Assembly: GCA_963755715.1 (NCBI GenBank)
Contig: CAVWLW010000003.1
Coordinates: 1-64,000 of the forward strand
Direction: 5' to 3'
DNA from: an uncultured delta proteobacterium
Lineage (GTDB): Bacteria > Desulfobacterota > Binatia > UBA9968
Length of the DNA stretch: 64,000 bases
This document shows, one piece after another, positions 31,235 through 63,926 of this stretch; the stretch's first letter is position 1, and the number at the start of each line of letters is the position of its first letter. A program made the position numbers and the translations under genes. Under the pieces are notes generated by a model. That model did no database searches. It was not told the origin of the DNA and saw only the letters and a program-made list of their open reading frames with translations.

Positions 31235-32136
31235 GCTCGACCACCGGGACCATCAATGCCGCGACGGTAAGCGCGAGCCGGCGGGCTGTCGACTTCTTTG
31301 AGCTGACTAAGCCGCGCATCGTTTTAATGGTGTTGATCACCGCCTTTGTCGGTTATTATGCCGGTTCCGGGCGCATCCCTGACTATCTGCAATTGCTGCA
31401 AATGTTGCTCGGCACAGCGCTCGCGGCCGGCGGCACGCTCACGTTGAATCAATTTATTGAGCGCGAGATCGACGCGAAAATGGAGCGCACGCGCCGGCGC
31501 CCACTGCCCGACGGCCGGGTGCAGCCGCAAGACGCGCTTTGGTTCGGTGTTTCGTTGACCCTTTTGGGCCTCGGTTATCTGGCGGCGGCCGTCAATTTAT
31601 TGAGCGCTGTTGTCGCGGCCGCCATTACCTTGAGTTATCTCTTGATCTATACGCCGATGAAGCGCGCCAGTTCGCTTTGTGTGCCAGTCGGCGCGATTCC
31701 CGGCGCCTTGCCGCCCGTGATCGGCTGGGTTGCCGCGCGCGGCGAGCTGTCTGTCGACGCGTGGGTGCTGTTTGCGATCATGTTTCTCTGGCAAATTCCG
31801 CATACGCTGGCCATCGCTTATCTTTATCGTGAAGATTTCGCCAAGGCTGGAATTCAGTTTCTGCCGGTGATCGAACCGGATGGCGACAGCACCAATCGCC
31901 AAATTCTCATCCACTGCGCCGCGCTGTTAGTCGTGAGCCTTCTGCCGACACTCATCGGTCTCGCCGGACCGAGCTACTTCGTCGTGGCTTTTCTGCTCGG
32001 TGCCGGCTTTCTTGCGAGCGGCGTCAGGCTCGTCCTTACGCCTACGCGTACGGGCGCGCGCCGACTGTTGTTTGCGTCGCTAATCTACCTTCCTGTTCTC
32101 TTGCTGGTGATGGCTTTGGACCGTGTGCCGATATGA
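31231..32136 (+). CDS. ctaB: Protoheme IX farnesyltransferase (heme O synthase)
   Basis: LTKPRI, DAKMERTRRRPLP, YTPMKR, GAIPGALPP, WQIPH. Confidence 0.95.
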   Translation: MSSTTGTINAATVSASRRAVDFFELTKPRIVLMVLITAFVGYYAGSGRIPDYLQLLQMLLGTALAAGGTLTLNQFIEREIDAKMERTRRRPLPDGRVQPQDALWFGVSLTLLGLGYLAAAVNLLSAVVAAAITLSYLLIYTPMKRASSLCVPVGAIPGALPPVIGWVAARGELSVDAWVLFAIMFLWQIPHTLAIAYLYREDFAKAGIQFLPVIEPDGDSTNRQILIHCAALLVVSLLPTLIGLAGPSYFVVAFLLGAGFLASGVRLVLTPTRTGARRLLFASLIYLPVLLLVMALDRVPI

Positions 32137-41172: not shown

Positions 41173-42574
41173 TCACCTGGAACAATCGACACAGAAGTAA
41201 CTTGCCTGCGTTCTGGAGATTTTTAGTCGACCAACGATCGGCGCGTCGGCGTGTTCTTCAAGATTGACTTTTAGACGCAGGAATCCAGGGTGAGTGCTGA
41301 TAACCAGCACCACCAAGCCGAGCGCGCTCAGGCTCATTATTTGAACGGCGGCGGGGCCGCCGAAGTAATGGGCAAGGGCGCCGGCCAACAGCGTGCCGAT
41401 CGGCACGGTCGCGCGGCTGATCAAATAAAAGCTCATGACGCGGCCGCGGATATGTCGCGGCGCACTTAGCTGCAGCAACGCCTGGTCCTGGGTCTGGTAA
41501 GTCGTCATAAAAACGCCGCTCATGAAAGCGCACGTCAAGGACAACCAAACCCAATGCGACAAGCCAAAGAAGAATACCGAGATACTGAAAACCACAGCGC
41601 CGATGACCGCCGGCAGGGCGTAAGCGTTCCGGCGCGGGATGGAAGCCACGACCAGCGCGCCCAGCAATGAGCCAATGCCAAAGGCGCTCAGTAAGAAACC
41701 TTGAAGCTGGGCGCCGCCATGTAAAACATCTTTCGCGAAGATCGGCATCATGTTGGTAAAGGGCATGCCGAGAGTGAGCGGGCCGAGCGCCAGGATCAAC
41801 TGGGTGCGAATGTTGCTGTTGGCTCTCACGTAGGCAAAGCCGCCCTTGATGCTTTGAAAAAACGACTCCCGGGCGACACGGGCCGACTCGAGGCTGCGCT
41901 CGGGGATATGCATCTGGATCGTCCAGACCGTCGCGAGCAGGAACATGGCCGCTTGGACATAATAGGAACCGTGCACACCAATGGTGGCGATCAGTAAACC
42001 TGCGAAGGCCGGTCCGACGGCGCGCGAGCTGTTGACAGCCATGGAATTGAGCGCCAGCGCATTCATGAGGTGTCTTCGCCCGGCGAGGTCATTCACCAGG
42101 ATTTGGCGCGCGGGATTCTGAAAGGCTTGCACGGTGCCGACCAGGAAGCCGGTTACGTAAACATGCCAGGGTTGGACACGATTCGTAAGACGAGCGTGGC
42201 CAGAATGAGATTGAGAACCGCATTGGTAACTTGGGCAACGATGAGTTGTGCTTTACGACCGGAGCGGTCCGCCAGCGCGCCCGCAACGATGCCGAAAAGG
42301 AAAAGCGGAATGCCGCGCATGGCGGCGGCAAGGCCCAATTGCAGGGGTGAGCTGGTAATATGGTAAATGAGATAGCCGCGGGTGATGCTGTCCATCCACT
42401 GGCCCAGGCTGGTGTCGAGCTGCCCAAGCCAAAGGAGTCGATAGTCGCGGATGCTGAGGGAATCAAAGGTATGGATTCTGCTCAGCAACCCACGCATTTT
42501 TGGCCGCCAGCGTTTGCAGAAGGGTCTGTTTGCCTTTGCGTTCCTCCCGTCGGCTCCGGGTTCCTCGTTGTCAT
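41173..42574 (-). CDS. MFS transporter (MFS_3/EntS-like), several frameshifts
   Basis: RDYRLLWLGQ, GALADRSGRK, AFQNPARQ, RGRVMS, spread over three ORFs. Confidence 0.8.
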
Positions 42575-42665: not shown

Positions 42666-44091
42666 TCAATTCTTCCTACTGCCCCTTACGGCGGAGAAGA
42701 GAATGGAAAACAAGGTGAAAAAGTTAATGATATGAACGGTGTGATTGAAGGTTTGCATGAAGGCGTCCGGAAAAACTCCCCAGCTCTGCGGAAATTCGAT
42801 TTGAGATCGCGTTAACCCGGCAACGGTTAAGCCATAAGTGAAGAGAGTTGTGGAAAGCGCGACACCACAAGACGCGCCAAGACGACCGGTCGTAATCGCC
42901 ATGCCGGCAGCCGCTCCAACCTTGTCTCGGGGTGCTGATCCGAGAATCGCGTTCTGGTTCGGTGTATTGAAAATGGCGATGCCAAGCCCGGAAAGCGCTA
43001 GCGGAAGCATGATTCTCGGTATCGAAGCGCTGCGGGTGAGAGAGGCGATGAAGAATTGTCCCAGGACGATCACACTCGTGCCGATCGTACAGAGGAAGCG
43101 CGAGCCAAATCGATCAGAGAGTCGACCGGCCAGCGGTGCAACCATGCACGATCACAACCGAGTTGGCGATGATGATCCAGCCCATTTTGGAAGGAGAAAA
43201 GCCCATGATGCTCTGCAGGTAAAAGGGCATGAGAAATTGAATGGCTGCCTGCGATGAGGTGATGAAGAACAGACTTAAATTGGCGAAAGTGAATAACCGG
43301 CTGCGGAATAGCGAAAGGCTCAGAATAGGAACTTCAACGCGTAGTTCGGTCAGGATTAAAAGAAACAATCCAGTGAACGAAAGCACAAGGAGTGAGATGG
43401 ACGTGAGGTTGAGTCCCTCGTGGGGGAGGTCTCGTATCGTGTAAAGAAAAAGCGTGTTCGTCGCGAGCAACAGGAAGGCTCCGACGAAATCAATCTTGGC
43501 GCCTTCCTTTTCGTCTCCGCCGGTTTCCTCCATCGTCTTCCATGCTAGGTAAGCCCCAAGCATTCCGACCGGTAGATTAATGTAAAATATCCAACGCCAG
43601 CCGAGCGTATCGATCAGGAAACCCCCCAGAGTGGGCCCGGTAAGGAAACCGGTATGCAGCGCTACCGAGGTATAACCCAGCGCTTTTCCCCGCTCTTCCG
43701 GTGGAAAAACCGTTGAAACGATAGCTCTCCCATTGGCGGTCAACATGGCGCCGCCAATCGCCTGCAAGCATCTAAACAGAATGAGCTGCGCTGGGGAGTG
43801 AGACAGACCGCATAGGGCTGAGCCGAAGATGAAAAGAAGAAAGCCGGTTATATAGATCCGCTTGCGACCAAAAAGATCGCCGACCCGTCCCACCGTTATG
43901 ACCAGACCGATGAGAGTGAGATCATAAATAAGCAGAGTCCACTGGACGGTTGTGAGGTCGGTTCCAAAAGTTCCGGTCAGGGTTGGCAATGCAACTAAAA
44001 GAACTCGTTGATCCACGGCCACCATGAACAGCCCTACACAAACATTGAAAAGAACCAAGCGGGGATTCCGAGGACGGCTGGTTTGTGTCAT
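42666..44091 (-). CDS. DHA2 (EmrB/QacA-like) MFS efflux transporter (frameshift near 43148)
   Basis: VALPTL, GRVGDLFGRKR, GPTLGGFL...WRWIFYINLP, GRLSDRFGSR. Confidence 0.88.
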
Positions 44092-44253
44092 AGGGAATTT
44101 TGAAACAAGAAACATCTTTGGATGCGGCGTACATCACACACGCTACAAGCGCTCGCGCAAACCAGCAACCGCAATTGAATACAATGAGAACACTATTTAA
44201 AGACTTAAATCCAAAAGGAGCAGGCGAACGGTTCCTAGCCGGTTTGTATTTGG

Positions 44254-48400: not shown

Positions 48401-49057
48401 TTATGGGTGGTCGGCCGCGTCGAGGCGTCCTAAGCGCTTCAGAGCATCGCGTGCCGGCTGAAACGTCGACTGGGCGTCAAGTGCCATGTAATAATAATGC
48501 ACGGCGTGGGATGTATGACCCTCGCTCTCGGCAAGCTCACCGAGCTGATAATGCGGCTCCGGGCGCGTAACATCGCGCATTATGGCGATTTTTAGGTATA
48601 CGCGCGCTTCCGTGTAGGATTTGCGTCCGCGGGCTAGCTCGGCGAGGTGGAGAAGCTCATCGACGGTTCCGCTCATGCCGATCTTTTGTCGTTGAAGGAT
48701 TTCTTCGCAAAGCAGCAGGATATTCTTTGGATCGAACGGCTTCTCAATGAAGTCTACAGCTCCGAGTTTCATTGCATCGACGGCTCGGCTTACAGTTCCG
48801 TAGGCAGTCAGCATGACCACCGGCATCTTGGGTCTAAGGCCTCGTAGATAGCGAAGCAGTTCCAAGCCATCCATCTTCGGCATCTGGATATCGACGAAGA
48901 CGATATCGTAGAGGCCCGCTTTAACTTGCAGCAGAGCGTCATCGCCATTGCTGGCCTTATCCACCTTGTACCCTTCGGCCTCGAGCACCATGGCGAGATT
49001 ATTGCGGATGTTGCGCTCGTCATCGACAACCAAAATGTGAACCTGCGATTGAGTCAT
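48401..49057 (-). CDS. Response regulator receiver with C-terminal TPR helices, no DNA-binding domain
   Basis: VVDDE, VDIQMPKMDG, LTAYG, EKPF, then EARVYL...PEPHYQLG...YYMAL...FQPARDAL. Confidence 0.85.
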   Translation of the reverse strand: MTQSQVHILVVDDERNIRNNLAMVLEAEGYKVDKASNGDDALLQVKAGLYDIVFVDIQMPKMDGLELLRYLRGLRPKMPVVMLTAYGTVSRAVDAMKLGAVDFIEKPFDPKNILLLCEEILQRQKIGMSGTVDELLHLAELARGRKSYTEARVYLKIAIMRDVTRPEPHYQLGELAESEGHTSHAVHYYYMALDAQSTFQPARDALKRLGRLDAADHP

Positions 49058-49113
49058 CGGACTGCTCCTTTCATGCTGTTGCCGGACGAGATTCGCGATC
49101 TATTTGTATAGAG

Positions 49114-49129
49114 CGCATGAAACGTGCCA
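49114..49129 (-). promoter_or_regulatory. Sigma-54 promoter for the leftward operon
   Basis: Minus strand TGGCAC-GTTTC-ATGCG (GG-N10-GC), 56 nt before ATG 49057. Confidence 0.65.
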
Positions 49130-49222
49130 TCCCGCGCATTCCAAGCTGCCGACTGCCGATCGGAAAGAGCCGTGAAATTGCAGGCAGTCCTGCTGTGGCC
49201 CAAGAGCCGCGAATCACTGCTG

Positions 49223-49267
49223 CTTGCAACTTGCAAATGTCGATCACTTGTTTCTTGCAACTTGCAA
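49223..49267. promoter_or_regulatory. Two CTTGCAACTTGCAA boxes, candidate enhancer sites
   Basis: Identical 14-mers start at 49223 and 49254 (31 bp apart). The core TTGCAA-C-TTGCAA is palindromic. Confidence 0.65.
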
Positions 49268-49320
49268 CGAGCGGCTCGTTTACCTTCCTTCGAAAGCTAA
49301 CGATTTCGTAATCGAATAAC

Positions 49321-49336
49321 TGGCACTAGGGTTGCA
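49321..49336 (+). promoter_or_regulatory. Sigma-54 promoter of the kdp operon
   Basis: TGGCAC-TAGGG-TTGCA, a full consensus match. Confidence 0.85.
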
Positions 49337-49376
49337 CCACAGCCTAAAGCAGGACTCTACTTTTAGGAGCGATCAA

Positions 49377-49460
49377 ATGGCTGACGCTATATTCATCATC
49401 ATCTCGGTCGTGTTTTTTGTCATCTCATGGTTCTACGTCCGCGGCTGTGATCGTCTGTAA
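49377..49460 (+). CDS. 27-aa hydrophobic peptide upstream of kdpF (not in the ORF track)
   Basis: MADAIFIIISVVFFVISWFYVRGCDRL*. AGGAG RBS. Confidence 0.7.
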   Translation: MADAIFIIISVVFFVISWFYVRGCDRL

Positions 49461-49469
49461 GGAGGAACT

Positions 49470-49559
49470 ATGGGACTGGAATATATTATTGGCTTTATCG
49501 TTTCGGTGGTTGTCTTGGTGTACTTGCTTTACGCGCTGCTATGGCCAGAGAAGTTCTAA
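49470..49559 (+). CDS. kdpF: K+-transporting ATPase subunit F (not in the ORF track)
   Basis: MGLEYIIGFIVSVVVLVYLLYALLWPEKF*. YL.YAL..PEKF motif and AAGGAGG RBS. Confidence 0.92.
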   Translation: MGLEYIIGFIVSVVVLVYLLYALLWPEKF

Positions 49560-49631
49560 CTGAGAGCAAGAAATCGCGGCGATGCGAAACAAATTGAAAA
49601 ATATTGCATTAGTAAGAAGGCGGGAGACGTC

Positions 49632-51353
49632 ATGACGGTAAATGGATGGATTCAAATCTTACTATATATGGCGATAATTTTCGCCATAACCAAGCCGCTC
49701 GGCAGCTACATGTATCGTGTATTCGAGGGGGACCGGCAACCTTTGCCGCGCCTGTTCGGGGCGATTGAGCGGTTGCTTTACAAGCTTTGCGGCGTTGATT
49801 CGAAGCAGCAGCAAGACTGGAAGCAGTACACGCTAGCGATGCTCGTGTTCAGCGCAATCACCTTGCTGGTCACCTACGGCATCGAACGGCTGCAACATAT
49901 TCTGCCGCTCAATCCGCAAAATTTTCCACCGGTCGCCCCGGACTTGGCGTTTAACACGGCGGCGAGCTTTACGACGAATACCAACTGGCAGGCGTATACA
50001 GGCGAGTCGACGATGAGCTACCTGACGCAGATGGCCGGACTCGCCTGGCATAATTTCATGTCCGCCGCTGTCGGCATCGGCATAGCGCTCGCGTTGGCGC
50101 GCGGTATCACCTACCGCTTGCAGGCCGGCGCGGCGAAAACACTGGGCAATTTCTGGGTCGACCTCGTGCGCGCCACAGTGTACGTCTTGATTCCTATCTC
50201 TATCCCGGTCGCATTGCTGCTGGTGTCTCAGGGAGTCATTCAAAACTTTTCGTCATATGTCGACATAACGACACTGGAGGGCGTCAAGCAAACCTTGGCG
50301 ATGGGGCCGGTGGCATCGCAGGAAATCATCAAGGAACTTGGGACTAACGGCGGCGGATTTTTCAACGCCAACAGTGCCCATCCATTCGAAAGCGCTACTC
50401 CGCTGACCAACTTCATCGAAATGCTGCTGATTTTTTCCATTCCAGCCGCGATGACCTACACGTACGGCCGCATGGCGCGGGACCAGAAACAGGGATGGGT
50501 GCTGTTCGCCGCGATGGCGCTTATTTTCGTCGTCGGTGTCTGGGTTGCGTACTCCAGCGAAGCGCAAGGCAATCCACTCATGCGCGGTATGGCGGTCGAT
50601 CAAGGCGCAGGCAACTGGGAGGGGAAAGAAGCGCGTTTCGGTATCGCCAACTCTGCGCTGTTTGCCACTGTCACCACGGCAACTTCGTGCGGCGCGGTCA
50701 ATTCGATGCACGATAGTTTCACCGCGCTCGGCGGGCTCGTTCCGCTCGCCAACATTCAACTCGGCGAATTGGTTTTCGGCGGCGTCGGCGCGGGACTCTA
50801 CGCGATGCTGATTTACGTCATCCTGTCAGTTTTTATCGCGGGGCTGATGGTCGGACGCACGCCGGAATATCTCGGCAAAAAGATCGAATCGCGGGAGATC
50901 AAACTCTCGATGCTCTACGTGCTGATCTTCCCGCTGTTGATCCTTTATTACGCCGGCTGGTCGCTGGTCGCGCCGTACGGCGTTTCATCTCTAAACAACG
51001 CCGGCCCGCACGGCCTCAGTGAAATTCTCTACGCTTATAGCAGCGCCGCGGGCAACAATGGTTCCGCCTTCGCCGGCCTGAACGCAAACACGCTCTGGTT
51101 TAACGTGAGTCTCGGTTTGACGATGCTCGCTGGGCGTTTCTTGATGATCATTCCCGCGATGGCGGTGGCCGGCTCGCTCGTTGGTAAAAAAGCGGTGCCG
51201 GAAAGCTTGGGCACCTTCCCGACCAACGGATCGCTTTTCGTCGTGCTGCTCGTCGGCGTCATCATCATCGTCGGGGCGTTGACTTTCTTCCCCGCGCTCG
51301 CGCTCGGTCCGATCGTCGAACATTTTTTGGCTCAAGCAGGAAAGGTTTACTAA
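49632..51353 (+). CDS. kdpA: K+-transporting ATPase subunit A
   Basis: Filter motifs TNTNWQ, LGTNGGG, TSCGAVN, GNNGSAF; also [11 protein letters not shown]. Confidence 0.97.
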
Positions 51354-51354
51354 C

Positions 51355-53413
51355 ATGGCAGACACACGCTTAAAGGAACGTTCTCTGTTCGATCCGGAAA
51401 TCATGCGGCCGGCGATTTGGGACAGTTTCCGCAAACTGACGCCGCGCCACGTGATCAAGAACCCGGTCATGTTCGTGGTCGAGATCGGCAGCGTGCTGAC
51501 CACTTTGATCTTGGTGCGCGATCTTTTCGCGCCGACGCCAGGATCTCAGCCGCTCTGGTTTACCTTCAACGTCAGTTTCTGGTTGTGGTTCACCGTGGTC
51601 TTCGCCAACTTCGCCGAAGCGGTGGCCGAAGGACGCGGCAAGGCCCAGGCGGCGACGCTGCGCAAAATGCGCAAGGAAACCAACGCGCGGCGCTTGGTTA
51701 ACGGTCATCGGGAAGAAGTCGTGCCCGCGTCGGCGCTCCGCAAAGGGGACACCGTCGTGGTCGAAGCCGGCGAAATTATCCCCGGCGACGGCGACGTGAT
51801 TCAAGGCATCGCATCGGTCGATGAATCGGCGATCACCGGCGAATCAGCGCCGGTCATTCGCGAAAGCGGCGGCGACCGTTCAGCGGTCACCGGCGGCACC
51901 AAAGTTTTGTCCGACCGGATCGTCGTGCGCATCACGGCAAGCCCAGGGCGAATCTTTTCTCGATCGCATGATCGCTTTGGTCGAAGGCGCGGAGCGGCAG
52001 AAGACGCCGAATGAAATCGCGCTGAATATTCTACTCGCCGGCCTCACGCTGGTTTTTCTTTTTGCCTGCGTCACCCTCGTGCCGATGGCGCTCTACTCCG
52101 GCATGGCCACCGTTTCCGTCACTGTTATCGTGGCGCTGCTCGTTTGCCTGATTCCGACGACTATCGGCGGTCTTCTTTCGGCAATCGGTATCGCCGGCAT
52201 CGATCGGTTACTTAGAAAAAACGTGCTCGCCATGAGCGGACGCGCCGTCGAGGCCGCCGGCGATGTCGACACTCTGCTTTTAGACAAGACCGGCACGATC
52301 ACGCTCGGCAACCGTATGGCCACAGAGTTTATCACTGTCGATGGCGTGAGCCCGGAAGCTCTCGCGGACGCCGCCCAGCTCGCGAGTCTCGCCGATGAAA
52401 CTCCGGAAGGCCGCTCGATCGTCGTGCTGGCGAAGGAGAAATACGGACTGCGCGGTCGCGACGTGCAAAGCATCGGCGCAAAATTTATTCCGTTCAGCGC
52501 CCAAACACGCATGAGCGGTTGTGATCTGGACGGCCGCATCATCCGCAAAGGCGCGGTCGATGCGATTGTCAGCTTCGTCGGCGAGATGGGCGGCGCAGTG
52601 AGCTCGCAAATCGAAGGCGTCACTCACGGCATCGCCGATGCGGGAGGCACGCCGCTGGTGGTTTCCGAAGGTAGCGAGGTTCTCGGCGTGATCCATTTAA
52701 AGGACGTGGTGAAGGGGGGCATCAAAGAACGCTTTGCGCGCTTCCGCGCCATGGGCATTCGAACGGTCATGATCACCGGCGACAATCCGCGCACCGCCGC
52801 GGCGATCGCTCGCGAAGCCGGCGTCGATGATTTTCTCGCCGAAGCGACGCCGGAAGCGAAAATGCGTTTGATCAAAGAAGAACAGAACAAGGGCAAATTG
52901 GTGGCCATGACCGGTGACGGCACCAACGACGCACCCGCGCTGGCGCAAGCGGACGTCGGCGTGGCGATGAACACGGGCACGCAAGCGGCCAAAGAGGCCG
53001 GCAACATGGTCGACTTGGATTCCAACCCGACCAAGCTTTTGGAAGTCGTCGAGATCGGCAAGCAGATGCTCATGACCCGCGGCGTGCTCACGACTTTTTC
53101 CATCGCCAACGACGTGGCCAAGTATTTCGCGATCATCCCGGCCATGTTCATGGGCGTCTATCCGCAGATCGCGCCGCTCAATATCATGCATCTGGCGTCG
53201 CCGCAAAGCGCGATTCTTTCGGCGGTTATTTTCAACGCGATCATTATTATCTTGCTTATTCCGTTGGCCTTGCGCGGTGTCCAGTATCGCCCCATCGGCG
53301 CCGGCCCGTTGCTGGCACGTTCCCTATTGATCTACGGCGTCGGCGGGGTGGTCGCGCCGTTCATCGGCATCAAACTCGTCGATTTGGTTTTGGCAGCCGT
53401 CGGACTTGTCTAG
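51355..53413 (+). CDS. kdpB: K+-transporting ATPase subunit B (frameshift near 51947)
   Basis: [38 protein letters not shown]. Confidence 0.97.
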
Positions 53414-53421
53414 GAGAATCT

Positions 53422-54099
53422 ATGAAAACTTTCACTATCGCTTTACGCGCGACAATCGTTACGTTGGTGTTAACAGGACTTATCTATCCCTTCGTCATGA
53501 CCGGACTCGCTCAAGTGCTTTTCCCATGGCGCGCAAACGGCAGCCTGGTTACGGACGAAAAAGGCCAGGTCGTCGGCTCCGAGTTGATTGCCCAGGGATT
53601 CTCGAATCCCGCTTACTTTCAGCCGCGGCCTTCGGCGGCAGGGGAGAAGGGCTATGACGCGACTTCTTCAGGCGGCTCCAACCTCGGCCCGACATCGAAG
53701 AAGCTGCAGGATCGTATCAACGACGATCTCAAGCGCTTGAAGGCGGAAAATCCGCAAGCCACCGGACCCGTTCCAGCGGAACTTGTCACTACTTCGGCGA
53801 GCGGACTCGATCCGCACCTGTCGCCTGAAGGCATGATCTGGCAACTGCCGCGAGTTGCCAAAGCGCGCGGCGTAGCTCTCGAGCGGGTGAAGGCTGTGGT
53901 CGATGCCAACGTCGAAGGAAGAACATTCGGCGTCTTGGGCGAACCGCGAGTCAACGTGCTGATGGTCAATCTAGCGCTCGATCGCCAATTTGGCCGGCCA
54001 GCTCCGCTTCCTCCGGCTCCTGAAAAGAAAGAGGCAAAGGAAGCAAGCCCAGACAACAAAGGCGGTACTCAATCAGCCGCTCCGGCCGAGAAGCCCTAA
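53422..54099 (+). CDS. kdpC: K+-transporting ATPase subunit C
   Basis: ANGS, GSELIAQ, FQPRPS, SNLGP, SASGLDPH, GEPRVNVL. Has a Pro/Ala/Glu/Lys-rich tail. Confidence 0.95.
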   Translation: MKTFTIALRATIVTLVLTGLIYPFVMTGLAQVLFPWRANGSLVTDEKGQVVGSELIAQGFSNPAYFQPRPSAAGEKGYDATSSGGSNLGPTSKKLQDRINDDLKRLKAENPQATGPVPAELVTTSASGLDPHLSPEGMIWQLPRVAKARGVALERVKAVVDANVEGRTFGVLGEPRVNVLMVNLALDRQFGRPAPLPPAPEKKEAKEASPDNKGGTQSAAPAEKP

Positions 54100-54126
54100 C
54101 CAGACGAGAATCAGGAGGGTCGACCG

Positions 54127-54886
<760 letters not shown>

Positions 54887-54916
54887 ATCTGAACTTCACG
54901 AAGAGGAGGAAGGAGA

Positions 54917-56615
54917 ATGGTCATAGGCAAGCCACTGGGGAGATTTTTGTCGGTTACAATACTGTTGAGCTGGACGCTGATGTTGCATCCGGTTCTCGCA
55001 GAGGAAGCTACGCCACCGGGCGGGGCGCCGCCGCAAGCAGCGGAGCCGAAACCTGATCCTGCCGGAGTATCGACGGGCGATAAAACGAACGTCATCGACG
55101 CCGGTGGAAATTCCTTTGCCGTGTCGGAGCCCAGTGACAAAGCCGATCCAGATTACGCCAAAAAGAAAAAGGACTTCGAAGTGTACCAGACCCAGGCAGG
55201 CAAGGAACCACTTGCGACGAAACTTGCCGATGCCGTTGGCCACCTTCGGCTTGCGACGAACTTTAGCTGGACGCTCTTGACCGGCTACCTGGTGCTGTTC
55301 ATGCAAGCCGGCTTCGCGCTTCTCACTTGCGGCTTGGTGCGCAAGAAAAACGCCGCGCATCTAATGATGTTAAACTTTGCTGCCTATGTCTTCGCCTTTC
55401 TCGCTTATTATGCCTGTGGCTTTGCCTTTCAGTTCGGCGCCGTGGCCGTCAACGCCGCGCCAACTAACCTCGGCGGCACGCCGACACTCAATGAGTTTCT
55501 CCTTGGCAGCGGCCAGTGGGGTTTTCTGGGCGGGAAAGGGTTTTTTCTAAGCGGCGCAGGCTACGACGCCGGAAGCAAGTTTAGCGCTCTTCGAAGTCGT
55601 GTTTATGGCGACTGCCGGCTATATCATCGTCGGCGCCATTTGCGAGCGCATTACATTCTGGGCGTTTATTCTGTGCGAACTTTTCGTGGGGGCCATTCTT
55701 TATCCCATGTTCGGCTGTTGGGTCTGGGGCGGCGGCTGGCTGTCGCAGCTGGGCGCCACGATGAACTGGGGACATGGTTACGTCGATTTCGCCGGCTCCA
55801 CCGTGGTCCACGCCGTCGGCGGATTCTGCGCAATGGCTTTGGCTGTGCTCCTCGGCCCGCGTATTGGCAAGTACGGCGCCGACGGAAAACCACGCGCCTT
55901 TCCAGCCCATAACATTGTCTTCGTGGTCACCGGGACATTTATTCTGCTGTTCGGTTGGATGGGTTTTAACCCTGGTTCCACTCTGGGCGCGACGGACTTG
56001 CGGATATCGGTGATCGCGATAAACACCAATCTCGCTGCGGTTGCGGGATCGGCGACGGCGATGATTCTTTGGTACTTTCTGTTTAGGAAGCCGGATATAA
56101 CGATGGCGTGTAACGGCATGCTGGCCGGCCTGGTTGCGATCACCGCGCCTTGTGCCTTCGTGAGCGCCAACTCCGCTGTGGTGATCGGCATCATCGCCGG
56201 CATCGTCGTCTGCTCTGGAGTCTTGTTCAATGAGCGCGTGCTCAAAGTCGACGATCCCTGTGGCGCCGTCTCGGTGCACGGTTATTGCGGTTGGCTCGGC
56301 GCAGTCTGTGTCGGTATTTTCGCCGATGGGACCTACGGGGCCGGCTGGAACGGTGTCGGGGCTGCGAGCTATCTTGGCAAAGCGGGCCAGGGGGTGACGG
56401 GTTTGCTCTACGGCGACTTATCCCAATTCTGGTTGCAGTTGGGCGGTGCCACCCTGTGCATGATCTATGCCTTCGGCTTCACTTACGTCACTTTCAAGCT
56501 GGTCAACGCCATCGTGCCGTTGCGAGTGCCGGCCGAAACTGAACTTGAAGGTCTCGATATTCCCGAGTTCGGCATGACCGCCTATCCCGAGGATGCGCTG
56601 GCTGAAGCGAAGTGA
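54917..56615 (+). CDS. amtB: Ammonium transporter (frameshift near 55580)
   Basis: LVLFMQAGF, GAICER, WVWGGG, DFAGSTVVH, GPRIG, GWMGFNPGS, DDPCGAVSVHG, LRV...E..GLD. Confidence 0.93.
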
Positions 56616-56886
56616 TCGGCGGAGATTGCTTATCGATAGATAGTGGGAGAAGTCTACCTAGGAGAGAGAGGCTATAGTCACATATCGAGTCGCGGCATAA
56701 AAAACGTTTGGTACGGGCCAATAAAGGAGCAGTGCTGCTTTTGGGGAGTGGCACGCTCCTTTTCGGCGTTTGGTCACAATCTGTGGGTTACGGCGGTTTG
56801 TAGTAGCGTGATTTGCGGCAAGAATGATAAACAGATCAGTTCATTAGAAAAAGTCGATGCTGCGCAACACCTGAAATATTTCTACC

Positions 56887-58044
56887 ATGGGTAAAAAACA
56901 GAAACGCCCTGAAGATTTCCTCGAGCTGGTCGAGCGCGCCAAGCGCGGACGGCTGAAGGTTTATATTGGCTCGGCCGCCGGCGTCGGTAAAACTTATCAG
57001 ATGCTCGAGGAAGCTCACGCGCTCAAAAAGCGCGGCGTCGACGTGGTGTTGGCGTTCATCGAGCCGCACGACCGGCTCGATACCGCGGCGCTGATCGAGG
57101 GACTCGAGGTGGTGCCGCGCCAGCGCGTCGATTATCGCGGCGTGGTTGTCGAGGAGATGGATCTCGATGCGGTTCTCAAGCGCCGTCCTCAGGTTGCCAT
57201 CGTCGATGAGCTGGCGCATACCAACGCGCCGTTTTGCAAAAACAAGAAGCGCTATCAGGACGTGTTGGAACTGCTCGAAGCCGGCATCAACGTCATCTGC
57301 GCCTTCAACGTGCAACATCTCGAAAGCCTCAACGAAATGGTCAAACAGGCCACCGGCGTGGTGGTTCGCGAGACTGTGCCGGACTCGATCCTGAAGCGGG
57401 CCGATCAAGTCGTCGACATCGATCTGGCGGTCGAAGATCTCATCGATCGCCTTAAAGCGGGCAAGATCTATGCGCCCGACAAGGTTGGATGGGCGCTGGA
57501 GAATTTTTTCTTACCGGAAAAACTTGCGGTGCTGCGTGAAATCGCCTTGCGGGAGGTCGCGGAAAGCGTCGATCGCACGGTTGCGGCCAAAGCCGGCAAC
57601 GGTGATGCCGGCCGCAGGTCGGCGGCGAGCGAACGCGTGATGGTTTGTCTGCCCACCCGGCCGCCGCCCAACGGCGCCATGCTGCTTAGACAGGGCTCGC
57701 GCTTGGCGGGCCGGTTGAACACCGACTGGTTTGTTGTCCATGTCGAGACCAAAAGCGAAGCCGGTCACCGGATCGACGCGACACTGCAGCGGTACCTTCT
57801 GGACGACGAGCAAAGAGCCCGAGACTTGGGCGCTGAAGTCGTGCGCCTGCGCTCGGAAGAACCGGTTGACGCGCTCCTCGAATTTGGCCGTGATCATGGC
57901 GTCCGCCATATTGTCGTCGGGCGATCGCACAAGCCTTGGTGGCGTCGTATGTTAGGTCAGTCGCCGGTCTTTAAGCTGGTTACCGAGGCGGCCGGATTCG
58001 ATCTCCACATCGTGTCGTTGGAAGATCGGGAGGCAAAGGAATGA
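56887..58044 (+). CDS. kdpD: Stand-alone KdpD N-terminal sensor domain plus Usp domain
   Basis: GRLKVYIGSAAGVGKT, VDELAHTN, NVQHLESLN, LREIALR, then a Usp domain. No TM or kinase part. Confidence 0.9.
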   Translation: MGKKQKRPEDFLELVERAKRGRLKVYIGSAAGVGKTYQMLEEAHALKKRGVDVVLAFIEPHDRLDTAALIEGLEVVPRQRVDYRGVVVEEMDLDAVLKRRPQVAIVDELAHTNAPFCKNKKRYQDVLELLEAGINVICAFNVQHLESLNEMVKQATGVVVRETVPDSILKRADQVVDIDLAVEDLIDRLKAGKIYAPDKVGWALENFFLPEKLAVLREIALREVAESVDRTVAAKAGNGDAGRRSAASERVMVCLPTRPPPNGAMLLRQGSRLAGRLNTDWFVVHVETKSEAGHRIDATLQRYLLDDEQRARDLGAEVVRLRSEEPVDALLEFGRDHGVRHIVVGRSHKPWWRRMLGQSPVFKLVTEAAGFDLHIVSLEDREAKE

Positions 58045-59880
58045 ATCTTTACAAAAAACTATTGCTGGCCCAGGCGCCGATCGCCATCGCCCTGGCGATT
58101 GTCGGCATTTTTTCGGTGATCGTCGTGTCCTATCTCGGCACTCATTCGCAAACCATTTTGAAGGACAACTACCGCAGCGTGCTGGCCGCGCAGCGGATGA
58201 AAGAAGCCATCGAACGGATGGATAGCGGCGCGCTGTTTATGGTCGCGGGCGAGCGTCAAAAAGGGCTTGAGCAGGTAGAAAAAAATCAGCCGATCTTCGA
58301 AGCCGAGCTGAAAGTGCAAGAGGGGAATATCACGGAGTCGGGAGAGAAGGAGTTCACCGAGGGGCTGCGCGCCGCGTGGATGGATTATCAAACGAAATTT
58401 GCGCGCCTGCAAAAAAGCACGAGCAGCGAAGAGGCAAAACAAATCTACTTCTCCGAGCTGGAATCGGCCTTTTACAGAGTGAAATCGGCCGCCGACGAAA
58501 TCCTGGCGATCAATCAAGACACCATGGTGCGCAAAAGCGATGACGTGAGGCGCACGGCGGAGCGCATGAACGCGGTCACCATCACGGTGGCGCTCGCTGC
58601 CCTTGCGCTGGGACTCATCGTCTCGACATTTTTGACTCGGCGCCTGCTCCGGCCGGTTTCGGCCCTCAGCGAGGCGACGCGAAAAATCGGCGAGGGCAAC
58701 TTCGACACGCGGGCTCACGTGCGGGGCAACGACGAGCTGGCGCAGTTGGCGCGGGACTTCAATGCCATGGCCGCGCGCTTGGCGGAATACCGCAAAAGCT
58801 CGCTCGGTGACTTGCTGCAGGCGCATTTGAGCATGCAGGCGGCGATCGACAGCCTGCCCGACCCGGTAGCGATTTTTAATATCGACGGCAATCTCCAGAA
58901 CGTCAACCGTGCGGCGGAAACGCTGATTGGGCTGAGAACTGACAGGCGGCGCCAAAGAGCCGTTCAAAACCGTCGACGCTGCGACACGAGCCGTTCTCGA
59001 GCGCATGCGCAGTCACGTGCTATCGGGCAAAGGCGCGTTTAACCCGAGAGGGTTCGAAGATGCGGTCCAGCTCCCGACTATGTTGGGCGATCGGTATTTC
59101 TTGCCGCGCGCCACGCCGGTCTACGAATCGCGCGGCGTGATCGTCGGCGCCACGGTGCTCTTGCAGGACGTTACCCGCTTGCGCCGCTTCGAAGAATTGA
59201 AAAACGACGTGGTGGCGACCATCGCGCACGAGTTCCGCACTCCGCTCACGTCCTTGCGCATGGCGGTGCATCTGTGCACCGAACAGGTCGCCGGTCCGCT
59301 CACGGAAAAGCAAGCCGAGCTTTTGCACGCGGCGCGCGAAGATTGCGACCGGCTGCAAGCCATGGTCGACGATCTCTTAGACATGTCGAGGATCGAATCG
59401 GGCCGCGTCGAGCTCTATCCGTTGCCGACTCCGAGCGGCGTGCTTGCCGAGAGCGCCGTGGAACAATTCAAGGCGGAAGCGGAGGCGAAAGGCGTGCGCC
59501 TGAGCGCGGACATCACGATTCCGGAAGTCAAAGTGCTGGCGGATCACGAGCGCGTGGGCCATGTATTTGCGAATCTTGTCGGCAACGCGTTACGCCACAC
59601 CCAACGCGATGGTTCGGTGATCCTGGGTGCGAGCGTCACCAACGGCGCGGTGCGCTTCACTGTAACGGACACGGGCAAAGGAATTCCAAAGGAATACCAG
59701 GAGCGAATCTTTGAAAAGTTTTTCCAGGTCCCGGAGAGCGGACCGAAAGGAACCGGCCTGGGTCTTTATATCGCCAGGGAGATCGTGCGCGGTCATGGCG
59801 GCGACATTGGCGTGGAAAGCGAACCGGGCAGGGGAAGCACTTTTTGGTTCACTTTGCCGCGGGAGACCAAGAGCGCTTAG
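58041..59880 (+). CDS. Sensor histidine kinase, KinB-like (TM-4HB-TM-HAMP-PAS-HisKA-HATPase) (frameshift near 58945)
   Basis: ILKDNYRSV, HAMP DELAQLARDFNAM, AHEFRTPLTS, NLVGNA, DTGKGI, GTGLGL. ATGA overlap with kdpD. Confidence 0.9.
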
Positions 59881-59914
59881 AACGGAGCGGGGTCATGGCA
59901 GTACCCACTCGGAG

Positions 59915-59995
59915 TCCTTCGACTTGGCTCAGGACGAACGGAGACGATCTTAAAGTCGTTGATGATTTTCCGTTCATGCTGAGGGTCTCGAAGCA
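59915..59995. repeat. REP-like long inverted repeat between convergent genes
   Basis: TCCTTCGACTTGGCTCAGGACGAACGGA ... TCCGTTCATGCTGAGGGTCTCGAAGCA. Confidence 0.7.
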
Positions 59996-60025
59996 TTGCG
60001 AACCTTTTTTAGCAAGGCTCTTTTT

Positions 60026-61447
60026 CTACCCCTCATATTTTTTTCGCTTGCGCCAAAGCGTCGAGGCGTCGATCCCAAGCACGGCGGCGGCTTCGTCCAA
60101 CGTTGCGGTGCGCGCGATCACCCGGGTGATGTGCTCGCGCTCGACAGCGTCCAAGGAAAAATCGCCGCCCACTTGCGGCGCGTCCGCGGCGCGATGGCGC
60201 GCGGCAATGTGCGCCGGAAAGGCTTCCGGTTCGATGATTTGAGCCGGCCAAAGGATCACCGCTCTTTCGATGGTGTTTCTGAGCTCGCGGACATTGCCGG
60301 GCCACGAGTACGCGGTCAAAACATCGGCGGCGGAACTCGAAAGCTCGGGAGGTTGACGCCGCGCCGATTTTGCGAAGAAAATCAAAAAGCGGCGCGCCAA
60401 ACGCAAAATATCCTCCGGCCGCTCGCGCAGCGGCGGCAGCTGCAAGTCGATCACGTTCAGACGATAGAGCAAATCTTCGCGAAACAGGCCTTGGCGCACG
60501 TGCTCGGTTAAATCGCGATTGGTGGCCGCCACGGTTCGAACGTCGGCCCGCCGGGTTTTGTTCTCGCCGAGCCGTTCGAATTCTTTTTCCTCGATGAAGC
60601 GGAGTAGCTTCGCTTGCAGGGAAGGCGAGATGTCGCCGATCTCATCGAGAAAAAGCGTGCCACCCTCGGCCGCCTCGACGCGGCCCGCTTGATCGCGCAC
60701 GGCGCCGGTAAAAGCTCCTTTGGCGTGGCCGAACAGCTCGCTGGTCAGCAATTCCTCGGATAGAGTCGGGCAATTGACGACGACGAAAGGATGGCGGCTG
60801 CGCGGGCTCAATGAATGAATCCACCGCGCCAGCACGCTCTTGCCGGTGCCGCTTTCGCCGCGCAACAGCACCGCTGCGTCCGAGCTCGCCGCCTTTCGCG
60901 CAACTTCAAAAACCGCGCGAAGCTTCGGTGAATCGGATTCCAGATCGCTGTCCGGCGCCGCCTCGCGCAGACGGCCCTCCAGATCGATGACCTGTCGTTT
61001 CAGGTCGCGTTGCTTGATGCATTGATCGACAACGTGACGAATCTGCGCCGGCGTAAACGGCTTGGCCAGGTAGTCGGCCGCGCCGCGTTTGATCGCGTCT
61101 ACTGCGTTGTCGATGGTGGCGTAGGCCGTGATCACCACCACCAACAGATTGGGACAATCGGCGATCAGTTTGGGGATGAGGTCGAGACCGCTGGTGTCGC
61201 CGAGACGGACATCGAGAAACGCCAAATCGTAGGCTTGTTGGGTGAGCGCGTCGAGCGCGCTTTCTCCGGACGATACCGCGGTCACCTGACAGCCGGCTTG
61301 CTCGAGACAGAGCGAAAGCGTGGCGCGGATGTTCTTTTCATCGTCGATGACAAGTACCCGGAGTCTTGGATCCGGAGTCGGTTTTGAGGAGGACCACGAT
61401 GATCCGCCTTGTTTGGGCACTATGCTATCCGAGAGTTGTCGATGCAA
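60026..61447 (-). CDS. Sigma-54-dependent response regulator (AlgB/NtrC-like)
   Basis: [44 protein letters not shown]. Start uncertain. Confidence 0.93.
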
Positions 61448-61501
61448 GCGGCCGCGCGATTGGATCGTCGATGGCGCCGCGAGGCGGGAAACGGCTCGGC
61501 G

Positions 61502-63926
61502 TTACGGTGCTACTTGGACGCCGAGCATGCGGCCGAGATCTTCACAGCAAGCGACCCAACGGCGCGCCGTTTCGTCGCCGCGTTTTTCGGCGTCGCGCTG
61601 ATGGGGATATTCCCGCTTCCACAGCTGATAAAAAATATTTTGGACTTTCCAGAGATGGGTCGTGAACGGGAGCTCTTGAAGAAAGCTCGCGGCGTCGTGC
61701 AATTGCTCGAGTGCGGCCAACGAGGATTGCGTCGCAAGCACGCCGGCCACGCGCTCCAACGACTGCCGGTAGGCAAACTCCAAGGCCGTCATGTCGAGAG
61801 CGATGCCTTCGGCTTTGGCGGACTCAAAAAGGCGGGTGACCTCGGCGCGATCGATCTGCGTTCGTTCCAGCGCTGCGCGCAAATCCTGATTCAATACGAA
61901 CTCCGCCGCGGCGGCAAATCCTTTGGGAAGGGGAATCGCGAGATCGGTGAGAAAACGCATGAGCGGCGCGCGCGACTCGTAAACTTGCCGATAGAGCGCC
62001 GCCGCTTCGGCGAGATTGGCAGCCAGGATTTTCGTCAAGACGCTTCTTTGCTGGTCGTGAAAGAGCGAGCGCAAAGAGTAGTTCGATTCGCCGAAGCGAC
62101 GCTCCATCACGCGCAGGACCGCGGTGAGCTCGGCGCGGCGAAACGGTTCCACGGCGCTTTCAATCACGCTTTGATAGCTTGCGTCATCGCGAAATTCGCC
62201 AACCCCGCCGCTAATGTTGTGGTCGCCCAGATGGAGCACGCCGAAATTGAGCCTGGCAGTTTCCTGGGTAATTCTCGACGTGAGACGAACTCGGCCGAAG
62301 GCGAGCTTGGCTCGGCCGGCGGTGAAAACCTGTTGATCTTCACGGCTGGCGTCGTAGCAGTAGATCGCGGTCTCGCGCGGATAGTCTTCGAACAAAGTGC
62401 TGACCGCGTAATGGGCGCCGACTTTTTCCCAGTCAACCTTGGCGGGCCGGACCGAACGCGCATAGATGTCGGATCCATTGCCCTGCGCCGCGACGTTGCT
62501 TTTGGCCGCCGCCAAGCGCTGGGTAAACTGGCTTTCCAAAGACGCGCCGAAAAGGTCTTCCGCTAGTTGCAAGGCGCGGCCGGCGAACTGGAGAATTTGC
62601 ACGGCTTCGATGCCGGAAATGTCGTCGAAGAACCAACCGCAACTGGTGTACATGAGCATGGCATGGCGCTGCATTTCGAGGAGCTTGAGCGCCGTCACGC
62701 TTTCCGTGGCAGTCAAGCTCCGCCCGGCGTGAGCGGTGACAAAGCTTCGAATGTTTTCCGCCGATCGATCGTGAACGACGTCGATGTAGCCATTGCGGGC
62801 GGCCCAGGGATCGTTGAATAGCGCGCGCGCTTTCTCTTCCCAGCGCGGCGCGATGGTGTCGCGCAGCCAGTCCAGCGCGTTGCGCAGCGGCGTGCGCCAC
62901 GCCTGGTTCCAGCCGGGATGGGCGCCCGAGTTGCAGCCGCAATCGCTCCACCAGCGATCGATGCCGTGGGCGCAGCTCCAGGAGCTTTTCTCGACGATTT
63001 CGACTTCGTCGGTCGGCGGGTATTTTGCCAAGAACTCGCCGTAGTTGGTAAGTTGCGCCGGCGCGCCCGCGCCGATCCGATCTAGGACATAGGCCAGGGC
63101 CATGTCGCCGAAGCGATGATGGTGGCCGTAGCTCTCACCGTCCGTGGCGACGTGCACGAGCTGGGCGCCGTCTCTTTGGGCGAAAGCGCCGGTCAATCTT
63201 TCGATGAAACGATCGCCGTGCGAAAGCAGTCCCTCGAAAGCCACGGCGCGCGCGATCGGGCCGTCATAAAAAAACAGCGCGATCGATCTTCCCGACGGCA
63301 GACGGTGCTGGTAGGCGCGGGTGCCGTCGATGGGCCGACCCTTGAGCTCGTGCCATTTCGCCTCGCCGATCCGGCGCACACGCGCCGCCTGATGCGGCGC
63401 CAGAATCGTAAAACGCAGGCCAAACTCGGCGAGCAATTCGAGAGTTTCCAAATCGACGGCGGTTTCCGGGAGCCACATTCCTTCCGGCGCGCGGTTAAAT
63501 CTTTTTTCGAAGTCGCGCACGCCCCAGATAATTTGAGTGGCGCGATCGCGGCTGTTGGCCAAGGGCATGATGACGTGATTGTAAGCCTGGGCGATAGCGG
63601 CAGCCGTGGCCGGAAAAGTATTTTTGGCTTTCCCGGTCGGCGGCCAAGATCGCGGCGTAGACGTCCGGCGCCTTGACTTCCAGCCATGATAAGAGCGTCG
63701 GACCAAAGTCGAAGCTCATTTTGGCGTAGTTATTGACCAGCTTGACGATGCGGCCTTGTCCATCGAGAATCCGCGAAACCGAATTGGGCGCATAGCATTC
63801 CGCGGTGATTCTTTCATTCCAATCGTGATAGGGCGCGGCTGAATCTTGCAACTCGACGGCTTCGAGCCAGGGGTTTTCCCGCGGCGGTTGGTAGAAATGG
63901 CCGTGAATACAAATGAAGCGTTCCAT
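61502..63926 (-). CDS. Glycoside hydrolase family 57 with DUF3536 (frameshift near 63607)
   Basis: IHGHFYQPPRENPW, GMWLPETA, ATDGESYGHH, SWSCAHG, MYTSCGWFFD. Confidence 0.9.

Follow-up and report, generated by a model that had tools for sequence, protein, structure and literature searches.

Textbooks present Kdp as the emergency K+ pump and PII proteins as the sensors of nitrogen and energy status. In an uncultured soil member of the Binatia (GenBank assembly GCA_963755715.1, contig CAVWLW010000003.1, positions 1 to 64,000; hereafter the window), genes for both lie in a single locus, in which the pump genes kdpFABC are followed by a sequence-divergent PII gene (PIIx), a canonical glnK and an amt gene, and then by a short kdpD (kdpD-N), a sensor kinase gene and a convergent gene for an NtrC-type activator. 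Here we describe the gene anatomy, the motifs and the pattern of conservation observed at this locus. The conserved, apparently novel partner of Kdp is PIIx, not Amt; the embedded GlnK/Amt pair is a lineage-specific variant.

Gene layout, integrity and control elements

A listing of open reading frames (ORFs) combined with Pfam scans recovered every gene named in the initial annotation of the window, in the order peptide-kdpF-kdpA-kdpB-kdpC-PII-glnK-amt-kdpD-N-kinase with the sigma-54 activator converging on them (Table 1). The spacings given there also held: 27 nt separate kdpC from PIIx, PIIx and glnK overlap by 14 nt, and 30 nt separate glnK from amt. All four subunits of KdpFABC are encoded together (PF09604, PF03814, E1-E2_ATPase plus Hydrolase, and PF02669). 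The best candidate for the leading peptide is a conserved 27-codon ORF on the plus strand, which has its own ribosome-binding site before kdpF; a 64-codon ORF at 49117 matches no family and overlies the promoter region. No family in Pfam or NCBIfam matches the 27-aa peptide, which may be a fifth small Kdp subunit.

Table 1. Features of the kdp locus, with positions in the window.
Feature	Position	Strand	Support
RR218, divergent 218-aa receiver-domain protein flanking kdp	48401..49057	-	Response_reg 116 bits; beside kdp in relatives, 59-89% identity
TTGCAACTTGCAA repeats (two), putative enhancer (upstream activating sequence) for NtrC-type activator	49224..49267	+	exact copies; core invariant in 6/6 loci
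sigma-54 -24/-12 promoter TGGCACTAGGGTTGCA	49321..49336	+	sole exact match in 64-kb window
27-aa hydrophobic peptide MADAIFIIISVVFFVISWFYVRGCDRL	49378..49460	+	read from sequence; ORF kept in 6/6 loci
kdpF	49470..49559	+	PF09604 33.4 bits; TIGR02115
kdpA	49632..51353	+	PF03814 810 bits
kdpB	51355..53413	+	E1-E2_ATPase and Hydrolase over two frames; TGES motif; one gene
kdpC	53422..54099	+	PF02669 240 bits
PIIx, divergent P-II, 144 aa, C-terminal helical extension	54127..54561	+	PF00543 71.7 bits
Canonical GlnK-type P-II	54548..54886	+	PF00543 106.6 bits
Amt, 566 aa when intact, signal peptide and ~85-aa periplasmic extension	54917..56615	+	
Segment absent from natural deletion variant, 1837 nt (glnK from codon 8, most of amt)	54570..56406		
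Terminator-like stable hairpin after amt	56723..56762	+	-29.6 kcal/mol
Short KdpD (KdpD domain and Usp)	56887..58044	+	PF02702 303.5 bits, and Usp
Membrane sensor kinase, 4HB/HAMP/PAS/HisKA/HATPase	58041..59880	+	Pfam
Convergent NtrC-type activator: receiver, AAA+ and HTH_8	60026..61447	-	Sigma54_activat 224, Response_reg 93.8, HTH_8 36.4 bits

In the window kdpB, amt and the kinase gene are each split into two frames. Three split genes inside 8 kb, in a stretch where COX1, OAD_beta and two genes of the major facilitator superfamily (MFS) also appear split, could mean that the locus is misassembled or a set of pseudogenes. We compared positions 49000-60100 with Logan contigs from three soil DNA runs of three studies (X1, X4 and X5) and from one metatranscriptome run (X17). 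The contigs have one base fewer in kdpB at 51945/6 (X1, X5) or 51949 (X17), two letters added in amt at 55578/9 (X1, X5) and one base absent from the kinase gene at 58945 (X1, X4, X5), and each of these differences gives a single frame, encoding proteins of 685 aa (KdpB), 566 aa (Amt) and 612 aa (kinase). Amt proteins with the full 566 aa in one piece, 99% identical to that of the window, are on record, and kdpB and the kinase gene run in single frames in the relatives G012 and G018. Since short-read contigs of independent studies restore one frame throughout and intact, nearly identical Amt proteins exist, the three frame breaks are assembly errors, and the locus is not decaying.

The junctions hold as well. 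Logan contigs bridge kdpC/PIIx (X5 record 28, 53943-54434), glnK/amt (X1 record 4, 54542-54981) and amt/kdpD-N (X4 record 23, 56407-57290). No listed Logan contig spans the PIIx/glnK junction with 31 letters on either side; this junction is present on the metagenome contigs L197 and L198. In genome G021 a single contig has amt followed by kdpD-N, with 88.8% nucleotide identity to the window. With frames restored and junctions spanned, we rejected the reading of the locus as misassembled or pseudogenic, which we regard as scarcely credible; the embedding of PII and amt between kdpC and kdpD is not the assembly artefact that the initial annotation had kept in view. Elsewhere in the window, genes at 11076-11942, 28488-30250, 30266-32136, 41173-42466 and 42666-44115 appear truncated or split into overlapping frames, among them OAD_beta, COX1, COX15/UbiA and the two MFS genes. 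This is consistent with indel errors throughout the assembly, and the same pattern is seen in several relatives assembled in few contigs.

The region upstream of the operon agrees with the sigma-54 control proposed for it. The only exact match to TGGCAC-N5-TTGCW in the window reads TGGCAC-N5-TTGCA and stands 42 nt before the first ORF. Upstream of this site, at 54 and 85 nt, TTGCAACTTGCAA occurs in two exact copies. At up to one mismatch TTGCAACTTGCAA has three matches against 0.20 expected, a number reached by none of 100 shuffles; sigma-54 sites loosened by one or two mismatches are, in their window total, not above chance. In an alignment of six loci, two of them on distant metagenome contigs, the CTGGCA and TTGC of the promoter are invariant, and conservation extends to the GG and GC elements, to the cores of the repeats and to the 27-aa ORF.

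Downstream, the plus strand from 49337 to 57924 has no sigma-54-like site at two or fewer mismatches. Scans for sigma-54-like and terminator-like motifs found neither a promoter nor a terminator before PIIx; the lack of a terminator between kdpC and PII had been noted in the initial annotation. The hairpin behind amt has a z-score of -3.5; none of 200 shuffles folds as well, and it is conserved in all three sequences compared (window, G021 and L197). Rfam gave no match at E<=0.1 over 48900-61600, and in particular no riboswitch for cyclic di-AMP (c-di-AMP). The simplest reading of this layout is one sigma-54 transcript, which would run from the peptide to amt and terminate partially or fully before kdpD-N. 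Contigs of the soil metatranscriptome X17 fall on kdpB and amt; they establish presence in an RNA library only, in which DNA is possibly present, and are weak evidence.

Further sequence elements flank the operon. A sigma-54-like site with two mismatches, TGGCACGTTTCATGCG, lies on the minus strand at 49114-49129, with 57 nt between it and the receiver gene downstream. Three congeners in the six-locus alignment conserve this stretch, and a divergent sigma-54 control region may be common to the receiver gene and the kdp operon. In most related loci the kinase is followed by a paralog of RR218 with 52-60% identity (e.g. L158, L159, L162, L173, L177, L179 and L180); the window has none between kinase and activator, where the gap is only 145 nt. 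The activator itself stands at the same place in relatives, with 67-92% identity.

Apart from PII and amt, the frame of the locus, a sigma-54/split-KdpD Kdp system, is already known. In KdpD-N, PF02702 spans positions 1-210 of its 210 profile positions and is accompanied by Usp, with neither HisKA nor HATPase, as in short KdpD proteins; none of 19 sequences departs from the Walker A motif GVGKT or the Walker B motif DELAHTN. The chain scores 376.6 bits with NF038185 (KdpD_non_kinase), below the cut-off of 550. KdpB carries TGES (AITGESAPV in the translation), described in excerpts of PMC9651954 and PMC11018627 as the site of inhibitory serine phosphorylation. According to the excerpted text of Silberberg et al. 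2024 (PMC11018627), short KdpD/Usp chains are typically retained downstream of the pump and are atypical serine kinases that phosphorylate KdpB, responding in Deinococcus geothermalis to c-di-AMP. The system described there shares with ours the KdpD domain with Walker A and B, the Usp domain, the lack of kinase domains and the place downstream of the pump; besides TGES in KdpB, the genome analysed here has two diadenylate cyclase (DAC-domain) genes, which are a precondition only for control by c-di-AMP. Our locus has one or two PII genes between pump and KdpD/Usp, of which the excerpted text on that system makes no mention.

A second counterpart is the kdp operon DVU3334-DVU3339 of Desulfovibrio vulgaris Hildenborough, which in excerpts of Rajeev et al. 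2011 (PMC3333781) comprises kdpFABC, a split KdpD and its own regulator. Both operons encode the K+-sensor/Usp chain apart from the kinase chain and have a response regulator of their own in place of KdpE, and the upstream -24/-12 site with an NtrC-type activator nearby would place our locus in a sigma-54 kdp regulon of the D. vulgaris type. They differ in that the window kinase has a 4HB/HAMP/PAS input and the window activator is convergent. PII and the ammonium transporter of D. vulgaris belong to a separate nitrogen operon (DVU1231-1234), and the excerpted text of PMC3333781 reports none in kdp.

PIIx, a PII protein encoded next to kdpC

PIIx is a true member of the PII family: besides its PF00543 match, a profile comparison with solved GlnB/GlnK proteins gives 119 bits, and the core of an AlphaFold2 model has the beta-alpha-beta pattern, at a mean predicted local distance difference test score of only 62.8. 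Its pocket departs from that family. In an alignment to solved PII proteins, PIIx has N/S, E, D and E in the places of R38, K58, K85 and K90, GFGRQKG reads GAG(S/N)QQG, and GKIGDGK reads GDL(C/S)DGE (tgDlcDGEvi). PIIx thus lacks the basic residues R38, K58 and K90, which we take to be those that hold ATP and 2-oxoglutarate. The T-loop is one residue shorter than in canonical PII proteins. Across 20 sequences Y46, R47, G48, Y51 and R102 do not vary, and R100 hardly does; the T-loop tyrosine and the C-terminal arginines of canonical PII (R101, R103) are therefore kept. Most members carry ~35 extra residues ending in a helix. The NCBIfam P-II equivalogs give 89 bits under a cut-off of 202, and NCBIfam was found to hold no model for PIIx.

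A tree built on 53 PII rows of the order places the PIIx sequences in a clade of their own (6 rows, long branches) with a Shimodaira-Hasegawa-like approximate likelihood ratio test (SH-aLRT) support of 100; the PIIx of G018, whose N-terminus is frameshifted, was left out. Its position is constant. PIIx stands directly after kdpC in every one of the seven genomes of the family that have it (G000, G012, G014, G018, G081, G096 and, as a truncated copy, G103) and in 11 of 11 metagenome loci, and it does so in two types of kdp locus whose KdpD-N chains are only 40-44% identical. Metagenome data hold more than 100 PIIx protein clusters at 50-97% identity, covered over the full length including the C-terminal extension, and a sample of the phylum yielded borderline matches (127-133 bits) in 4 of 400 other genomes. 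The Kdp-bound PIIx subfamily is apparently undescribed.

Other searches were less specific. The ESM Atlas returned generic P-II clusters only (0.86-0.87), and a scan of genome contigs with the PIIx alignment gave best matches of 39-50% identity, dominated by canonical PII proteins through the N-terminal pattern. One candidate for a fusion of KdpC and P-II domains, P0048 (241 aa), was rejected, as it appears to be a read-through of the kdpC end. A prediction of the complex of PIIx with KdpD-N (score 0.00, mark 0.32) speaks neither for nor against binding.

SbtB is a PII-family protein dedicated to the transporter SbtA, and PstA/DarA are reportedly c-di-AMP receptors of PII-like fold. PIIx would share with them a PII fold whose effector specificity departs from ATP/2-oxoglutarate, and with the SbtB type the encoding alongside one transporter that it presumably controls. 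It differs from all of them in belonging to PF00543, with GlnB/GlnK as its closest relatives, in having another set of substitutions, and in its partner, which would be a P-type ATPase complex or the serine kinase of that complex.

The slot between kdpC and kdpD-N and the GlnK/Amt pair

KdpC was found in 29 of the 90 genomes of the window's family. Some family tallies, and two rows of canonical PII in the tree, include the unpublished genomes G005, G076, G079 and G093; the loci discussed individually rest on none of these. Among 17 kdp loci of the same type as that in the window, PIIx occurs in five, GlnK in two and Amt in the window only, and G021 adds a separate contig with amt-kdpD-N. The slot between kdpC and kdpD-N is empty in nine genomes and holds a 76-aa membrane protein alone in three. 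PIIx is joined by this protein in G012 and G081, by this protein and a BBP2 porin in G018, and by both of these and GlnK in G014; PIIx-GlnK-Amt is the content of the window. Synteny of kdpC-PII-PII-amt-kdpD, the check put forward with the initial annotation, is thus not broadly conserved.

Metagenome contig L197 (1825 nt) documents a natural deletion in this slot. It aligns to 54062-54571 of the window at 99.6% identity and then to 56407-57725 at 93.3%, a mosaic that suggests recombination between diverged strains at the locus. No repeats that would explain the deletion joint were found flanking glnK-amt. A second joint in Logan contigs, 53996->56861, corresponds to relatives without the whole insert.

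The other occupants of the slot are recorded here in their own right. A conserved protein of ~73-76 aa, predicted to have two membrane helices and matching no known family, is encoded just before kdpD-N in many relatives (L035, 11714-11944; L036, 6075-6296 on the minus strand; L147, L149, L162, L180, L181, L199-L202 and L207). It is absent from the window, in which glnK-amt occupies its place. The BBP2/OmpL-like porin (PF07642, 225 bits) lies in the kdp slot of G018 (L035, 10144-11361) and G014 (L149/L150, ~8550-9725), and in G106 (L153) a 52% identical porin is encoded ~3 kb from a glnK-amt pair. The PIIx-bearing locus of G014 was assembled twice (contigs C20 and C30). A second type of kdp locus has a conserved membrane protein of 106-112 aa (MLQFTI...SLRRLLEAH...) after kdpC (L148, L163, L166, L167, L170 and L171), and some genomes of the family additionally have a further type, with the order kdpC-kdpA and proteins only ~37-51% identical to those of the window (L172, L174 and L176; G014, G071).

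Two ordinary PII/Amt loci lie elsewhere in the genome of the window, which makes the kdp-embedded pair a third copy. Its GlnK is canonical throughout, including Arg47 and Tyr51 of the T-loop. Placing it in the PII tree, as had been proposed, put it with the GlnK of G014 in a separate, kdp-linked clade (SH-aLRT 99). In G014, GlnK is encoded in the kdp locus just before kdpD-N without Amt, and no amt relic was found between the two genes. Contig L198, whose PIIx is 79% identical to that of the window, shows the order kdpC-PIIx-GlnK and an overlap of the same sort. In all, a Kdp-linked GlnK is seen in three lineages and an Amt beside kdpD in two.

GlnK acts on AmtB, and their complex has been solved (2nuu/2ns1). 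The pair at 54548-56615 has the same composition, a canonical GlnK beside an Amt with intact pore residues; it differs from the usual pair in that its operon is that of a K+ pump, led by a sigma-54 promoter, and not a nitrogen-regulated one. The twin histidines, Phe gate, Trp/Ser and Asp of the pore are intact in an ortholog aligned to 6eu6 and 8qj3, and the window sequence carries the same motifs. The intact Amt 99% identical to that of the window scores 360.4 bits with TIGR00836, above the cut-off of 343.3. The best solved relatives are the two reported ammonium receptors, Ks-Amt5 (6eu6, 213.9 bits) and Sd-Amt1 (8qj3, 201 bits), with AmtB at ~146 bits; the residues for pore selectivity are conserved between them and the window Amt. 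Unlike these two, the window Amt has no fused transducer: its 566 aa end ~10 residues past the Amt domain and match the Amt family only. Excerpts of PMC11152129 give the N1/N2 signature of ammonium receptors as Q-x6-E-x15-N-x2-D-[FT]-x54-60-T-x2-[ST] and note that not all cluster-2 Amt proteins are fused to a transducer. Judged by eye on the alignment, the window Amt (Q..T..N..A-Y...T..Y) agrees at 3 of 7 positions and lacks the Glu, the Asp, the Phe/Thr and the last Ser/Thr. From these features we consider Amt, with reservations, a probable transporter.

Close orthologs of this Amt are present in 2 of 89 other genomes of the family, G021 (99% over 284 aa) and G101 (85%). In metagenomes the clusters that reach 82% identity number at least 120; one of them, 86% identical, is named from Syntrophobacteraceae.

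A working model and its alternatives

The reading we favor is that of a working sigma-54/split-KdpD Kdp system of known type joined by a dedicated PII-family regulator and, in this lineage, by a co-transcribed GlnK/Amt module; as a whole, it has in our judgment about an even chance of being right. The HAMP/PAS kinase would sense low K+ and probably feed the NtrC-type activator, which most likely binds the two upstream repeats and drives the sigma-54 promoter before peptide-kdpFABC. The short KdpD with its Usp domain would brake the pump post-translationally: as an atypical serine kinase, possibly controlled by c-di-AMP, it would phosphorylate KdpB at the serine of TGES. PIIx, made with the pump, would be a Kdp-dedicated regulator that reads a non-canonical effector, not ATP/2-oxoglutarate, and would act on the pump or on the KdpD-N brake, comparable to GlnK with AmtB or SbtB with SbtA. 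Because no promoter or terminator motif follows kdpC and a hairpin stands behind amt, transcription of glnK-amt probably accompanies that of the pump genes under K+ scarcity, and the most likely effect would be a GlnK-gated uptake of ammonium switched on together with that of K+. K+ has glutamate as its counter-ion, and making glutamate requires assimilated nitrogen; the ammonium taken up could supply nitrogen for this K+-balancing glutamate or serve as a substitute monovalent cation. Ammonium is reported to be able to replace K+ in K+-limited cultures and to enter through Kdp (Buurman 1989, 1991, as cited in excerpts of PMC1609136). Since some strains have deleted it, the glnK-amt module is accessory.

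A number of observations weigh against this model. Twelve of the 17 same-type loci have neither PIIx nor GlnK, and since most related kdp loci do without them, none of PIIx, GlnK and Amt is needed for Kdp function. The slot also takes up other cargo, the BBP2 porin and the 76-aa membrane protein, which fits a recombination hot spot as much as a functional unit. L197 has lost glnK from codon 8 and all of amt except its last 65 codons, and the joint of this deletion, 54569->56407, was seen in all three DNA runs (X1, X4 and X5); the existence of a near-identical strain with the deletion means that the glnK-amt module is dispensable and polymorphic in the field. The Amt ortholog of G101 is encoded behind a DinB-family gene, on a 2.7-kb contig that contains neither PII nor kdp genes, and proteins of this Amt subtype are frequent elsewhere (7184 at E<=1e-80). 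The single transcript is deduced from motifs, and contigs cannot show transcript structure; the roles of the PII pocket residues are assumed. Longer, fused forms of PIIx were not found at E<=1e-15, which is weak evidence.

Much of this would also be expected if the slot were simply prone to recombination and glnK-amt had landed there by chance, its co-transcription being neutral or mildly costly, while PIIx may still regulate Kdp. The content of the slot varies among congeners from nothing to a small membrane protein, PIIx, a porin, GlnK and Amt; the deletion variant and the insert-less forms, recognized by their two joints, occur in the same soils; and the two sides of L197 differ in their identity to the window. 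The rarity of Amt in the family, its abundance in metagenomes and its 86% identity to the Syntrophobacteraceae-named protein suggest horizontal acquisition. Three conserved features argue for more than incidental cargo: the translational overlap of PIIx and glnK kept in L198 despite the distance of its PIIx, the distinct kdp-linked clade of GlnK common to two species, and the amt-kdpD-N junction, kept in another species together with its intergenic hairpin at 88.8% nucleotide identity. We hold arrival by chance to be rather doubtful. The initial annotation had favored a dedicated circuit for ammonium sensing or leak management. In such a circuit Amt would be mainly a receptor or transceptor and not an uptake route, and together with the two PII proteins it would feed back on the pump or on KdpD. 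The receptor-type solved relatives of Amt point that way, as do its Phe, in place of the assimilatory Tyr, three residues after the signature Gln (PMC11152129, in excerpt) and its place, in two genomes, immediately before kdpD-N and the kinase; the GlnK of G014, beside kdpD-N without Amt, suggests a GlnK target within the Kdp system, and entry of ammonium via Kdp has been reported (Buurman 1991, as cited in excerpts of PMC1609136). Such a circuit is nevertheless unlikely, given the partial N1/N2 signature, the missing transducer domain, the canonical GlnK beside Amt, which is the usual sign of a transporter, and the loss of the module from a near-identical strain.

Within the favored model of a Kdp system with a dedicated PII-family regulator, a bolder and improbable version would make PIIx a new functional class of PII protein, a regulator dedicated to a P-type ATPase, whose acidified pocket would have given up ATP/2-oxoglutarate for a signal of K+ homeostasis, c-di-AMP or the cation itself, and which would either gate KdpFABC directly or set the activity of KdpD-N. 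In the lineage of the window GlnK would add nitrogen and energy status, which would put one pump under two PII proteins.

To our knowledge, the links known between Kdp and the PII field run via PtsN and c-di-AMP and not via PII. We found no paper in open-access full text that describes PII genes in kdp operons or a kdp-glnK-amt unit, in keeping with the earlier impression that the architecture is uncharacterized. If the model is true, the kdpC-bound PII subfamily with its rebuilt pocket would be a new input to K+ homeostasis, and a P-type ATPase system would be a new target class for PII signaling. The near-identical soil strains with and without glnK-amt constitute a natural experiment, which opens the chemostat observation that ammonium replaces K+ or enters via Kdp to a genetic test.

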